Of a DNA stretch of 64,000 nt, positions 48,034 through 51,515 are shown piece by piece. Numbering within the stretch: the stretch's first letter is position 1; each line of letters opens with the position of its first letter. The notes under the pieces are model-generated. The model was not told the origin of the DNA. It was given only the letters and a program-made list of their open reading frames with translations, and did no database searches. The position numbers and the translations under genes were made by a program. The stretch covers positions 1,933,536 through 1,997,535 of the forward strand of contig OZ257145.1 of assembly GCA_965279315.1 (NCBI GenBank), read 5' to 3'. The DNA comes from Alphaproteobacteria bacterium. GTDB lineage: Bacteria; Pseudomonadota; Alphaproteobacteria; Micavibrionales; UBA2020.

Positions 48034-48062
48034 TTGACATAACTTTCGGGCTTTGTTATATT
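48034..48062 (+). promoter_or_regulatory. Near-consensus sigma70-type promoter of the LRR-like operon
   Basis: TTGACA (48034-48039), a 17-nt spacer, then TATATT (48057-48062). It lies about 115 nt upstream of the first ATG (48176). Confidence 0.6.
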
Positions 48063-48175
48063 ATTTGCCATGCCCCGTGCCACTACCGCTGCGCGATTTT
48101 AACGTGTTTCTCGCACAGCCTTACCCCGCACCCGGATAAAACAGCCAGTTTTGTTTTTGTAACGGGAGAATTTGT

Positions 48176-48463
48176 ATGTCGAAAGCAGCCAGCTTATTGC
48201 TTGCCGGATTTGCCGTTGTGACCGCCATCGGCGGCGCGAATTTGTGGGAGGCGGCGGAGGCCACCAACGCCAAGGCGACGCTCAAGAACGAAGGCTACAC
48301 AGATGTGGAGGTCACGCGGGGCGCGCGCTTCAGGACTTCTGCGCCGATTTTCACCTTATATGCAGCGCCGTTCAAGGCGCGCGACGCCGACGGCAAAGAG
48401 GTAAAGGGCGAAGTCACCCGCAACCTCGGCAAGCCGGTCGCCTTCCAGCTGAAGGCAGGGTAA
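48176..48463 (+). CDS. Small exported/anchored protein (95 aa), first gene of the operon
   Basis: RBS GGGAG. N-terminal hydrophobic helix SLLLAGFAVVTAIGGANLW, then a Lys/Glu-rich beta-like domain. Confidence 0.65.
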   Translation: MSKAASLLLAGFAVVTAIGGANLWEAAEATNAKATLKNEGYTDVEVTRGARFRTSAPIFTLYAAPFKARDADGKEVKGEVTRNLGKPVAFQLKAG

Positions 48464-48470
48464 TGCAGCC

Positions 48471-48905
48471 ATGACGTCACCGCTTGAAAAAATAATGGAT
48501 GCCATCCACCGCGACCCCAGCGATGCCGGCAGCGTTGCGGATTTTTTCAACGCGGCGTCCGCCTTCCCCAAGGAAGATTACGACGACGCCACGCATGAAC
48601 TGAAACGTCGCTATGCCGAGGAATATATCCCCGAAGCCGTCCGCCGCGTAGAACAAACCGAAAGCATGTCCGAAGTCGCATACCTCAACGGCGTAGAGGA
48701 ACATAACAGCGCGCTCAACAACGCCACCTCGTTCTTCCACCGCAACCCGCACCTGAAAGGGCAGGTGCCGCAGGTGATCGTGGAACATCACGCGGAAATG
48801 CTGCGCCATACCGTTTCTGAAATCACCGCAACCGCCGGAAAGCTGGATGGGCATCTGGTTGCGCCGCAAACCGCGTCGTTCCGCCGCAACAAGGCGGAAA
48901 TGTAA
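48471..48905 (+). CDS. Family member 2: N-module plus basic tail, no repeats (144 aa)
   Basis: LKRRYAEEYIPEAVRR is the N-module motif. The protein ends ..HLVAPQTASFRRNKAEM. Confidence 0.7.
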   Translation: MTSPLEKIMDAIHRDPSDAGSVADFFNAASAFPKEDYDDATHELKRRYAEEYIPEAVRRVEQTESMSEVAYLNGVEEHNSALNNATSFFHRNPHLKGQVPQVIVEHHAEMLRHTVSEITATAGKLDGHLVAPQTASFRRNKAEM

Positions 48906-49945
48906 TGGCGGCGGTGATGCACATTCAGGGCGATATCGGCGACTGGCTGGAGATGCGCGTTGCGGCTGAAAGCGAGCCCTTCGCAACCGGTCAGGAAATC
49001 GCCGACAAGGCCGATAAAATTCAAGGCATTTTTGACGCGCTGGATAAAATGCCCGGCGATACGCAGCTGATGGAGAAGCTGGCGGCGGAAATCGGCTCCC
49101 GGCCCGTGCCCGGCGGCGTGGCGTACCAGGCCGCGCAGGAAATGATGCGCCGGTATAACCAGGAATTCATTCCTGAAGTGCGCCGTCGCCGGCCCGTGAC
49201 GGCGATGGTAGAATTGGATAACGAGATTCTCAAGCGCGCACGCGAGCTGCTGCGCACGCGAACGGAAGTGAATGGCCCGACGGAAACGCAGCCGGTTGCG
49301 CCCGGCAGCCCCGAAAATAACCTGCGCCTCAACGACATCCCCTATCGCCGCCGCGCGGGCGAGGTGATCGTGATGGGCGATGTCGATTTCAACGACCGCG
49401 AGATGCTGCCCGACCTGACGGGCGTGATCGTGAACGGCGGCTATTACATGTTCAACGTGCCCGCGAAAAACCTGTTCGGCACGCCCAAATATGTCGGCGG
49501 CAATTTTTTCTGCGCCGATAACGGCCTTGAAACGCTGGAGGGCGCAACGCCCGATATCGGCGGCGGTTTCAGCTGCAAGGACAACAACCTGAAAGACCTG
49601 CGCCACGGCCCGAAAAACGTCGGCGCCGATTATATCGTCGAGAATAACAAGCTGGAGACTGTCGAAGGCGCACCGGAAAACCTGACCGGCATCTTTAACA
49701 TCGCCGGCAACCCCGGCATCCGCGATTTCGAACATGCGCCGAAAACTTTCCGCGAATTGCGCAGCGACTACGGCGTTTTCGCCAGCTGGGATGATGTGCC
49801 GACGCATCTGCTGCAATCCGAAGAAAAAGTCCTGCGCATCGCCCATGAATTCCGCGAACAGGTAAAGGCCGTGGTGCGCGAAACCGGCACGCTGTCGCGG
49901 CCCGTCTCCGCACCCAAAACCGCGTCATTCGCGAGGAAATCATGA
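48905..49945 (+). CDS. Family member 3: N-module plus five 21-aa LRR-like repeats plus C-module/tail (346 aa)
   Basis: The start overlaps the upstream stop (TAATG). Repeats are VNGGYYMFNVPAKNLFGTPKY / VGGNFFCADNGLETLEGATPD / IGGGFSCKDNNLKDLRHGPKN / VGADYIVENNKLETVEGAPEN / LTGIFNIAGNPGIRDFEHAPKT. The tail is ..LSRPVSAPKTASFARKS. Confidence 0.8.
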   Translation: MAAVMHIQGDIGDWLEMRVAAESEPFATGQEIADKADKIQGIFDALDKMPGDTQLMEKLAAEIGSRPVPGGVAYQAAQEMMRRYNQEFIPEVRRRRPVTAMVELDNEILKRARELLRTRTEVNGPTETQPVAPGSPENNLRLNDIPYRRRAGEVIVMGDVDFNDREMLPDLTGVIVNGGYYMFNVPAKNLFGTPKYVGGNFFCADNGLETLEGATPDIGGGFSCKDNNLKDLRHGPKNVGADYIVENNKLETVEGAPENLTGIFNIAGNPGIRDFEHAPKTFRELRSDYGVFASWDDVPTHLLQSEEKVLRIAHEFREQVKAVVRETGTLSRPVSAPKTASFARKS

Positions 49946-50550
49946 GTCGTCTTTCTGATGCGTTCAACACTGTCGCGGTGCAGGAAGACCCGTCGGAAGC
50001 GGCGCTGAAGCAGCTGAACGTGATTTATACGCGCCGCGACGACGGCAGGCTTCTGGTCGAGACCTCGCTTGATTTCCGCGGCTTGGCCATGAAGGAGCTG
50101 CCTGACCTCTCGAACGTGGTGGTCGAGGGCAATTTCATGTTTGGCATGAATGAACTGACCAGCCTGAAAGGTGCGCCCTATAGCGTGTCGGGTGATTTCC
50201 GCGGTGCCCTGAACCGCGTGAAGGATCTGCAGTACATGCCGCGCCATATCGGCGGCATCGCCGATATATCCGCCAATCGCCTGCGCAGCCTGAAAGGCGC
50301 GGATGGTGCCGAGGTTGGTGTGCTGAACGTGACGGGAAATCCCGGCCTGAAAGACCTCGAAAACCCGCCCAAATTTTTCACCGAGTTGCAATCCGATTTC
50401 GGCACGTACCGGACAGCGGATGATATCCCCGCGCATCTGCGCGTATCAGAAACCACGCGCGCCAGAATCCGCGACACCGCGAACAGCCTGACCGGCCTGA
50501 CCCGCGCTGTTATCGCGCCGAAAACCGCCTCATTCCGCAGGAAATCATGA
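49942..50550 (+). CDS. Family member 4: LRR-like repeats plus C-module/tail (202 aa)
   Basis: ATGA overlap with the upstream gene. It contains ELPDLSNVV, then VEGNFMFGMNELTSLKGAPYS / VSGDFRGALNRVKDLQYMPRH / IGGIADISANRLRSLKGADGAE / VGVLNVTGNPGLKDLENPPKF. The tail is ..LTRAVIAPKTASFRRKS. Confidence 0.8.
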   Translation: MSRLSDAFNTVAVQEDPSEAALKQLNVIYTRRDDGRLLVETSLDFRGLAMKELPDLSNVVVEGNFMFGMNELTSLKGAPYSVSGDFRGALNRVKDLQYMPRHIGGIADISANRLRSLKGADGAEVGVLNVTGNPGLKDLENPPKFFTELQSDFGTYRTADDIPAHLRVSETTRARIRDTANSLTGLTRAVIAPKTASFRRKS

Positions 50551-51515
50551 TCCTGAAACCGCTCAGCGAATGGGACGCGATGGCGCAGGACAGGATTGCG
50601 CTGCTGAACGCGCTGACGCCTGTCGTCAACGATGTGATGACGATGCCCGCGAATACGGCGGTGGTTGAAAAATTCACGGCAATGCTGGCGGCGCAGGGCG
50701 ATCATCCCGCCGACCTGTTCCGCGCGGAAGTCGCCCATATCATTTTCGAATACGACGCCAATTTCCTGCCCAATGCCGCGCGCAACGACCGCCCCGCGCT
50801 GGAACGCCACCGCCAGGTTTTCGCGGAACTTGCCGCAAATCTGGAACCTGCGGAAGTTTTACCGCCGCAGCAGTCGGAAGCGGAACTGCGCAGCCTCGGC
50901 ATCAAGTTTTCGCGCCGCGCCGACGGCATGCTGGAGGTGGCGGACAAGATTGATTTGACGGGCAAGAATCTCGGCACGCTGCCCGACCTGTCGAATGTCG
51001 TTGTGCTGGGCGATTTTTCGGCGGGCGGGAATGACCTGAAAAATATCATCGGCGCGCCGCCCTTTGTCGGCGGCACGGCGACTTTCGCCGGAAATGTCAT
51101 CAAGTCGCTCGCGGAGGGGCCGCAATATGTCGGCGTGGATTTTGTCGTCAGCTCTAACAACTTGAACGACCTGCATGGCAGCCCGCTTTATGTCGGCCGC
51201 GATTACGAGGCGCGGCAGAACCTGCTGACGACGCTTGCGGGCACGCAGCCCGAACTGAACGGCGTGCTGAGCCTGAAAGGCAATTTCCGGCTGGTGAGTT
51301 TCGAGCACGGCCCGCGCGTGTTCGAGGAAATGCGCACCGAATTCGGCGATTTCAAGACATGGGACGACATCCCCGAAAACCTCCGCATCTCGCAGGCGAC
51401 ACGCGACAAACTGGCGCAGGATTTCCGCGAGATGATGGACGGCGTGGCGAAACATACCGGCGTTCTGTCGCGCGCGGTTGCTGCGCCGAAAACCGCGCGG
51501 TTTACGCGGAAGTAA
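50547..51515 (+). CDS. Family member 5: N-module plus five LRR-like repeats plus C-module/tail (322 aa)
   Basis: ATGA overlap with the upstream gene. It contains IIFEYDANFLPNAARN and TLPDLSNVV, then VLGDFSAGGNDLKNIIGAPPF / VGGTATFAGNVIKSLAEGPQY / VGVDFVVSSNNLNDLHGSPLY and further units. The tail is ..LSRAVAAPKTARFTRK. Confidence 0.8.
   Translation: MILKPLSEWDAMAQDRIALLNALTPVVNDVMTMPANTAVVEKFTAMLAAQGDHPADLFRAEVAHIIFEYDANFLPNAARNDRPALERHRQVFAELAANLEPAEVLPPQQSEAELRSLGIKFSRRADGMLEVADKIDLTGKNLGTLPDLSNVVVLGDFSAGGNDLKNIIGAPPFVGGTATFAGNVIKSLAEGPQYVGVDFVVSSNNLNDLHGSPLYVGRDYEARQNLLTTLAGTQPELNGVLSLKGNFRLVSFEHGPRVFEEMRTEFGDFKTWDDIPENLRISQATRDKLAQDFREMMDGVAKHTGVLSRAVAAPKTARFTRK

Follow-up and report, generated by a model that had tools for sequence, protein, structure and literature searches.

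The best structure and profile matches to the proteins described here are the leucine-rich repeat (LRR) domains of IpaH, SspH and YopM, all effectors of type III secretion systems (T3SS). Our proteins are encoded by a five-gene operon (genes g1 to g5) of an alphaproteobacterium, located in a stretch of 64,000 nucleotides (nt) of contig OZ257145.1 (assembly GCA_965279315.1) that we call the window, and four of them end in a common basic C-terminal tail. With the T3SS effectors they share a repeat period of 20–22 amino acids (aa), a helical N-cap, a small stand-alone solenoid of the target-binding kind and the lack of a Sec signal. IpaH and SspH, however, carry a NEL E3 ligase domain, whereas the window proteins end about 55–65 residues past their C-cap and have no NEL match in Pfam or NCBIfam. 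The window has no injectisome, its FlhB and FliR being of the flagellar type. The repeat consensus also differs (V.G.F.C..N.L.SL.GAP against L..LP.LP in IpaH, SspH and YopM), and the C-cap SDFGxFxSW..VPE, a long helix and the basic tail further distinguish the family from these effectors.

The Listeria protein InlJ, which is Sec-secreted and wall-anchored, has LRRs of 21 residues with a cysteine ladder. It is the second-best profile match to our family among sequences of the Protein Data Bank (PDB; E=9.6e-16), from which our proteins differ in having no signal peptide. A further comparison is offered by the IRREKO class, defined by the 21-residue pattern LxxLxCxxNxLxxLDLxxNxx (PMC2946307). The repeats of the window resemble its second subtype in their 21-residue period and in the Cys at LRR position 6. 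They depart from it in the variable segment SL(E/K)GAPxxV, where Gly-Ala-Pro takes the place of L14-D15-L16, the second nested hydrophobic unit by which IRREKO repeats are recognised, and the nested 10+11 periodicity, LxxLx(L/C)xxNxLxxLDLxx(N/L)xx in its general form, is not evident.

Architecture of the operon-encoded proteins

An initial annotation of the window, drawn from the letters alone, had described the locus as a promoter-led operon of modular repeat proteins. The translations and a promoter check bear this out: five open reading frames (ORFs) run in the same direction on the plus strand (48176-51515) behind a TTGACA-17-TATATT promoter, and the motifs and C-termini originally quoted are all present. 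This five-gene locus, at a fixed chromosomal site, is a genuine operon. The same annotation saw three shuffled modules in g2 to g5. Their motifs are indeed there, and are better described as one core, that of g4, composed of an N-cap, the LRRs, a C-cap, a helix and the tail. Relative to this core, g3 and g5 gain an N-terminal four-helix bundle, and g2 consists of the bundle, the helix and the tail, its LRRs having been lost. The paralogues are 33–41% identical in pairs, each is well conserved across its own orthologues, and the same tail occurs in all. Inspection of the N-termini by eye agreed with the annotation that g2 to g5 have no signal peptide.

The repeats, first given as 21–22 aa long, have a period of exactly 21 aa, with unit cores of the form (F/Y)xCxxNxL. 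Canonical units number three in g3, three in g4 and four in g5, and degenerate first and/or last units bring the total to the 4–5 per protein counted at the outset. From a 63-sequence alignment, AlphaFold modelled g5 with a predicted local distance difference test (pLDDT) score of 93.1, as a four-helix bundle (residues 1–98), a small alpha/beta N-cap, the LRR solenoid, a beta-hairpin C-cap, a long helix (283–303) and the tail (304–322), the last at only 56–64. A canonical member of the wider family, P0135, was modelled at pLDDT 96.1, and periodic short strands are seen in both models.

Searches by structure and by profile point in the same direction as the solenoid proposed initially. Foldseek returned LRR proteins only for the g5 model; with a compact family member, the top matches were the LRR domains of IpaH1.4, IpaH3, IpaH7.8 and SspH1/2 (probability 1.0, TM 0.45–0.50, 20–30% identity). 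Against PDB sequences the family profile matched SspH2 (E=1.5e-20), InlJ and YopM (1.2e-11), as well as SspH1, IpaH7.8 and IpaH3, and a search with the single g5 sequence reached YopM at 9.7e-5. On models and profiles together, the repeats are true LRRs, predicted to form a short-period solenoid of the bacterial effector/internalin type.

In agreement with the first impression that this is not a described system, Pfam, NCBIfam, PHROGs and PADLOC gave no usable match for g1 to g5. The Pfam LRR models hit none of the window proteins at E<=1, and some distant family members have precomputed LRR_4 matches. No significant match to the N-terminal bundle module was found among PDB sequences; a match of the g3 module to LcrG (E~2e-3, far under the cut-off) was dismissed as helical noise.

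The C-terminal tail

The termini of g2 to g5 fit the pattern ..AP(K/Q)TA(S/R)F.(R/K).., and a scan for it over all six-frame ORFs of the window, a check suggested by the initial annotation, matched family members only. The tail is common to paralogues that differ in their LRR surfaces and to g2, which has no LRRs. Across 11 g5 orthologues AP.TARF.RK is almost invariant, and no part of the protein varies more than the helix that precedes it. Such an invariant core beside a variable helix is, as far as sequences can tell, the signature of a functional short motif.

In the wider family, the proteins terminate 50–65 residues past SDFGxF, with a tail of the consensus A-T-V-L-Q-x-P-h-x-V-x-[RK]-P-L-R-[LF]-[KR] that continues with 0–9 mostly basic residues. 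Net charge there is about +4 over the last 15 residues and about −6 in the protein body. A hidden Markov model (HMM) of the C-terminal module, built with the window clade excluded, matches the g5 orthologues to their final residues (E=1e-4 to 3e-8), and APKTA(S/R)F.(R/K) thus reads as a clade-specific variant of an old, family-wide element. The tail is a sequence-specific motif and not a compositional signal. As to the original picture of a conserved, basic and probably unstructured terminus, conservation and charge both held; the lack of structure agrees with the low confidence of the g5 model and not with P0135, in which the tail is modelled confidently.

Two profiles, a 19-column HMM of the tail and a 45-column HMM of the C-module, were run over every ORF in some 230 kb of related DNA, with reversed-sequence controls. 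A 160-aa ankyrin protein of locus L008 (3039-3521), encoded 7 kb from a family member, ends ..ATAIRKPLRIKKK; it was dropped as a candidate shared-tag protein, with scores of 10.8 and 8.4 bits against 10.2 and 9.7 for the reversed controls. Another ankyrin protein adjoins the operon in the window (51788-52435, minus strand) and ends ..RKKRPGLNLRK, a tail-like terminus not statistically distinct from controls; its gene is missing from the syntenic locus L001. A second ankyrin-repeat protein of the window is encoded at 34816-36369 (plus strand). At locus L007, a called gene of 59 aa (9674-9853), between an RNA leader and an LRR gene, lies inside a longer open frame (9587-9850) that weakly resembles one LRR unit (E=5e-5) and has a tail-like end, ..APKSVGKPVNLSAKR; this frame may encode a mini family member. 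A reading of the tail as an encapsulin cargo peptide was also dropped, no shell gene having been seen.

A large unannotated family

A word-indexed search starting from g5 yielded 14 proteins, which were essentially all orthologues. With one genome scanned per GTDB species, the window clade was present in about four metagenome-assembled genomes (MAGs), labelled Alphaproteobacteria or 'Bdellovibrionales', the latter because NCBI places Micavibrio under Bdellovibrionales. At E<=1e-3 an exhaustive HMM search reached 13,591 cluster representatives, of which 1,551 remained at E<=1e-30. Many of these matches are about 200–300 aa long, align from the N-cap through the last residues and share the core architecture, which for the family consists of an N-cap, four to five 21-aa LRR units and a C-cap SDFGxFxSWxxVPE, followed by a long helix and the conserved basic peptide at the C-terminus. 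All members that bear a name are 'hypothetical protein' entries of Alphaproteobacteria MAG origin. The products of g3, g4 and g5, along with that of a sixth gene at 20169 in the window, belong to this large unannotated family, whose members have no Sec signal.

The sixth gene adjoins the flagellar export-gate genes flhB (21476-22549, minus strand) and fliR (22558-23331, minus strand). The 21-aa unit is a widely reused module, since it also occurs fused to PcfJ-like domains (P0020 and P0024, about 740–870 aa) and to a Laminin_G_3 lectin domain (P0016, 2183 aa), and in Vibrio jumbo phages and uncultured megaphages (hits H1–H4). A phage origin of the family was rejected, as the few jumbo phages and megaphages concerned carry the LRR unit only and not the full architecture.

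Evolution of the locus

In all relatives the operon is found at one site, flanked by rlmI and a TetR-family gene. Flanking proteins are 88–99% identical between genomes, RlmI and TetR reaching 94–99% in all relatives except L005, and the proteins of the cluster are 74–86% identical, g2 going down to 49%. The ratio of nonsynonymous to synonymous substitution rates (dN/dS) is 0.17–0.26 in the cluster (0.18–0.26 for g2) against 0.04–0.08 in rlmI and tetR. By these estimates, the cluster evolves three to five times faster than its flanks yet under purifying selection, g2 included. Comparison of 48176-51515 with L001, L003 and L004 gave a dS of 0.5–1.1 in the cluster against 0.25–0.5 in the flanking genes, an approximately twofold excess that may come from recombination with more distant alleles or from weaker codon bias.

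Gene content varies as well. The first gene, g1, is found in L002 to L004 and missing from L001 and L005, and g4 is missing from L004. Locus L002 (1592-1855) encodes a 119-aa derivative of g4 from which the LRRs and the C-cap are deleted, with the tail still in frame. Two extra g5-like paralogues occur in L001, one of which (9928-10887) is interrupted by an in-frame stop, leaving a bundle ORF of 91 aa and a core ORF of 227 aa.

Operon layout and the RNA leader

The features of the operon and the related elements of the window are collected in Table 1. The promoter matches 11 of the 12 consensus positions in addition to its TG extension, and such sites number 3 in the 4-kb region against 1.1 expected from shuffles. 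Among five related genomes the -35 element is invariant and the -10 element retains TA...T. This is a strong sigma-70-type promoter, at which transcription is predicted to start before running through a structured RNA leader.

Table 1. Positions in the window of the operon features, of the sixth family gene and of the second leader cassette
Feature	Position	Strand	Description
Promoter	48031..48062	+	Extended -35 TATTTGACATAA with TTGACA at 48034-48039; 17-nt spacer; TG-extended -10 TATATT at 48057-48062
RNA leader	48066..48148	+	Nested helices P0 (GCA/UGC-type), P1 (GUGC/GCAC) and P2 (CUGCGCGA/UCGCACAG); loop UUUUA...GUUUC
U-rich stretch and g1 Shine-Dalgarno	48149..48175	+	UUUUGUUUUUG; GGGAGA at 48164-48169
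g1	48176..48463	+	95 aa; N-terminal hydrophobic segment (signal peptide or anchor); no LRR; accessory
g2	48471..48905	+	144 aa (136 aa if start 48495); helical-bundle module RRYAEEYIPE, C-terminal helix, tail HLVAPQTASFRRNKAEM; no LRR
g3	48905..49945	+	346 aa; bundle, N-cap, 5 x 21-aa LRR, C-cap SDYGVFASWDDVP, helix, tail LSRPVSAPKTASFARKS
g4	49942..50550	+	202 aa; N-cap, 4 LRR units, C-cap, helix, tail LTRAVIAPKTASFRRKS; minimal core of the wider family
g5	50547..51515	+	322 aa; four-helix bundle 1-98, N-cap, 5 LRR units, C-cap, helix 283-303, tail 304-322 LSRAVAAPKTARFTRK
Sixth family member	20169..20666	+	165 aa; N-cap, one LRR unit, C-cap SDFGSFSSWAEVP, degenerate tail ..KSKTLVGRFLSKLGA
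Second promoter and leader cassette	10163..10283	+	TATTTGACATAA at 10163-10174; RNA 10198-10283

The junctions first annotated as TAATG (g2/g3), ATGA (g3/g4) and ATGA (g4/g5) are as described, with overlaps of 1–4 nt; the genes g1 and g2 do not overlap and are separated by a 7-nt gap. The start of g2 is ambiguous (48471 or 48495), and the product on record differs from the 144-aa form. The end codons of g3 and g4, AGG AAA TCA TGA (R-K-S-stop; 49928-49945 and 50533-50550), also provide the Shine-Dalgarno sequence (SD; AGGAAA) and the ATG of the next gene, and a dual coding and regulatory constraint acts on the last three residues of both proteins.

Past the promoter, about 85 nt are almost invariant in five genomes whose coding dS is 0.6–1.1; this leader ends in the single-stranded sequence AAAACAGCC at 48138-48146. 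A profile of the leader, searched with nhmmer, pointed to another site in the window, at 10161-10284 (E=1e-7), and to one upstream of an LRR-family gene in a different genome, L007. A pattern scan of metagenomes returned 40 loci (L012–L051), about 23 of them genuine. Every copy of the cassette is preceded by the promoter box TTGACATAA, and independent single-sequence minimum free energy (MFE) folds converge on one three-helix rod for nearly all of them. The covariance model R1 recognises 24 copies at E<0.05, including those of the window at 10198-10283 (57.1 bits, E=2e-12) and 48066-48148 (41.5 bits, E=2.5e-8). Three copies occur in L007 (5663-5739, 7916-7985 on the minus strand and 9505-9579), and two in each of L018, L038, L042 and L046.

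Over the 24 copies, aligned by fitting to R1 itself, which has to be borne in mind for these figures, 88.7% of the cells are paired, against 22–40% with the partners slid; compensatory changes affect 10 of the 16 pairs, and cells with a double change number 49 against 15±3.4 in shuffles (0/500). The G-U pairs fit the plus strand. The folding energy of the window leader, taken as a single sequence, is unremarkable (z=-0.9), and the support for the structure is covariation, not folding energy. From this strong covariation the leader is predicted to be a conserved structured RNA with the general features of a cis-regulatory leader or small RNA (sRNA). Rfam 15 at its gathering thresholds had no match in the window or in 15 leader-bearing loci, and the sub-threshold matches were unrelated noise.

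In at least 12 of the 24 copies, as read by eye from the MFE structures, the invariant AAAACAGCC serves as 5' arm in a terminator hairpin of the A-tract/U-tract type. The 3' terminator arm (GGYUGUUUU) is missing from the operon copy; therefore, read-through is probably constitutive there, or less tightly gated. The invariant loop UGUUU could pair with the AAACA of the tail of the RNA as a pseudoknot or an anti-terminator; both elements being invariant, covariation is uninformative on this point. With its own conserved promoter, covarying stems, conserved single-stranded tail and frequent terminator, the cassette is reminiscent of attenuators, riboswitches and sRNAs. It differs from known attenuating leaders in having no Rfam counterpart, in preceding heterogeneous ORFans rather than the genes of one pathway and, for the operon copy, in the missing terminator arm. 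Genes after the leader copies include ORFans, Lcl_C lectin-like (adhesin-like) genes, a gene for a protein with repeats of about 30 aa, and LRR genes; the metagenomic leader loci are without any LRR family member.

Readings of the cassette as an integron attC-like site or a miniature inverted-repeat transposable element (MITE) were dropped, given the promoter carried by each copy, their occurrence in both orientations, the G-U pairs indicative of a strand-specific RNA and the lack of any mobile-element hallmark. The ORF after the second leader of the window (about 10398-11081, plus strand) has about five repeats of some 30 aa (DG.PA...F...G......GK..), MORN/YwqK-like by eye, and no Pfam or PADLOC match. 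Just downstream of this leader copy, a low-GC island (about 11300-13700) has a GC content of 0.45–0.51 against about 0.59, and of 0.36–0.44 at third codon positions. It is probably foreign DNA, and its ORFs (11347-12042, 12100-12834 and 12902-13666) have no Pfam match.

Organism and genomic context

The FlhB and FliR of the window pass the flagellar equivalog cut-offs and not the Sct ones. The nearest named relatives of FlhB come from a 'Micavibrio sp.' MAG (69%) and from Alphaproteobacteria MAGs, at 69–70% identity. Judged by these genes, the source is a flagellated Micavibrio-like alphaproteobacterium. The genome of M. aeruginosavorus, the cultured relative, is reported to hold complete type I (T1SS) and type II (T2SS) secretion systems, with no evidence for a T3SS or a type IV system (T4SS) (PMC3189940). 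The window also encodes two ankyrin proteins, a cytochrome bd oxidase, ATP-binding cassette (ABC) transporters and many ORFans.

Seven distinct genomic contexts were compared, the window included (L008 and L009 representing the same context). Outside the operon, the family genes of these contexts sit singly between housekeeping genes, and neither a conserved neighbourhood or partner for the family nor a secretion-system gene was found among them. Neither virB nor virD4 was found in the 64-kb window or the related loci. One ABC exporter gene of the window (56067-57845) is unlinked to the operon.

Possible roles of the proteins and their tail

We tentatively see in these products effector- or adaptor-like binding proteins with a shared C-terminal handle. 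This reading, to which we give somewhat less than an even chance, is the most likely one for an obligately interacting lineage, be it predatory or host-associated. Each paralogue would bind a protein target of its own, and the C-terminal peptide present in all would be the handle that couples them to one partner. Another cell would receive the proteins or be acted on by them, and one component for export or docking would recognise the tail throughout. The tight coupling of translation would fix their stoichiometry, and the RNA leader would place the operon within a co-regulated set of interaction genes. A bolder proposal, that the tail is the tag of an undescribed Sec-independent delivery route in Micavibrio-like epibiotic predators and that the RNA of about 85 nt is a new attenuator- or riboswitch-like leader class, seems rather unlikely to be right in both parts.

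Several observations weigh against a shared handle. In the seven contexts, family members have housekeeping neighbours only and no secretion or docking partner gene nearby, and in the 230 kb scanned neither tail profile marked unrelated tail-bearing proteins above the control scores. The basic, Pro-containing tail is unlike a T1SS signal, a point that bears equally on the T1SS route considered below. The cultured relative M. aeruginosavorus is reported to have T1SS and T2SS only (PMC3189940). Moreover, AlphaFold places the tail of P0135 at pLDDT 83–90 with no regular secondary structure; it may pack on its own protein, which would fit the model better than a free tag.

This last observation would suit the main rival reading, that of cytoplasmic binders (adaptors, inhibitors or immunity-like proteins) in which the helix and the basic tail form an intramolecular strap along the conserved flank of the solenoid and no signal is involved. 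Such binders might, for example, act against enzymes of the predator itself, which in Bdellovibrio are neutralised by the ankyrin protein Bd3460. The absence of a signal peptide and of secretion genes nearby, the basic tails on acidic bodies and the resemblance of these tandem, fast-evolving small paralogues with copy-number variation to immunity-gene arrays would all be in keeping with a strap. We nevertheless consider it unlikely, if with an appreciable chance of being correct: g2 holds the helix and the tail without LRRs and is under purifying selection, the internally deleted g4 of L002 retains its tail in frame, the tail of g5 is of low confidence in its own model, and neither an adjacent toxin or enzyme partner in any context nor a PADLOC match was found. 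The operon products might also assemble with one another, the bundle of g2, g3 and g5 binding the APKTA(S/R)F tail of a neighbour in a hetero-oligomeric, multivalent LRR complex whose stoichiometry is set by coupling. The bundle and the APKTA variant are confined to the same narrow clade, the genes overlap by 1–4 nt with SDs embedded in tail codons, g2 amounts to bundle, helix and tail only, and the in-frame stop of L001 yields separate bundle and core ORFs. As the tail is found without the bundle in the wider family, the ancestral role of the tail must differ, and we regard such an assembly as improbable.

Export through a described system finds less room still. The initial annotation had likened the basic terminus to the translocation signals of VirB/VirD4-type T4SS, whose substrates indeed resemble the family in having basic C-termini on otherwise acidic, effector-like repeat proteins; a tail of about +4, of low confidence in the g5 model and common to the paralogues, would agree. 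Signals of the Agrobacterium type are loose arginine patterns and not fixed motifs, however, whereas the tail is position-specific (P-L-R-[LF]-[KR] or APKTASF) over a large family and its canonical form is modelled as ordered. With no T4SS gene in the window or in any context compared, and a cultured relative reported without T3SS or T4SS (PMC3189940), this suggestion fared poorly and is now very improbable.

Signals for T1SS are C-terminal and uncleaved, and the known ones are depleted in K, R and P. The tail with its preceding helix could be such a signal: the bodies of the proteins are acidic, the window has an ABC exporter gene, though one unlinked to the operon, and the T1SS of M. aeruginosavorus is complete and up-regulated on prey attachment (PMC3189940). 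The family differs, though, from RTX-type substrates in that its sequences have no GGxGxD repeats and its tail is rich in K, R and P, and no ABC, membrane fusion protein or TolC genes are adjacent in any context, which leaves this route quite improbable. Finally, conservation of the tail could be an artefact at the nucleotide level, imposed by the need to provide an SD and a start codon for the gene that follows, as the AGG AAA TCA TGA of g3 and g4 would suggest. The g5 gene keeps the tail with no gene downstream, the SD comes only after the core APKTA(S/R)F, and hundreds of family members encoded by single genes conserve a homologous peptide. The artefact, of negligible probability, is effectively refuted by g5 and the wider family.

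Concluding remarks

These results bear on the means by which prey are manipulated and drained by Micavibrio and other epibiotic predators, the cultured species being devoid of classical contact-dependent injection systems. An effector-like LRR family might fill part of that gap. With no signal peptide, a shared handle, tandem expansion and fast evolution, its members are candidate factors of predator–prey or host interaction.

On the regulatory side, the leader represents a well-supported structured RNA new to Rfam and opens a way into a co-regulated accessory regulon of uncultured Alphaproteobacteria. Should the helix and tail prove to be an intramolecular strap, the finding would be the definition of a new LRR subfamily, useful for annotating thousands of 'hypothetical' cluster representatives. 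Should the tail be a tag, the family would comprise unrecognised LRR effectors, possibly hundreds to thousands of them, aimed at proteins of the prey or host.

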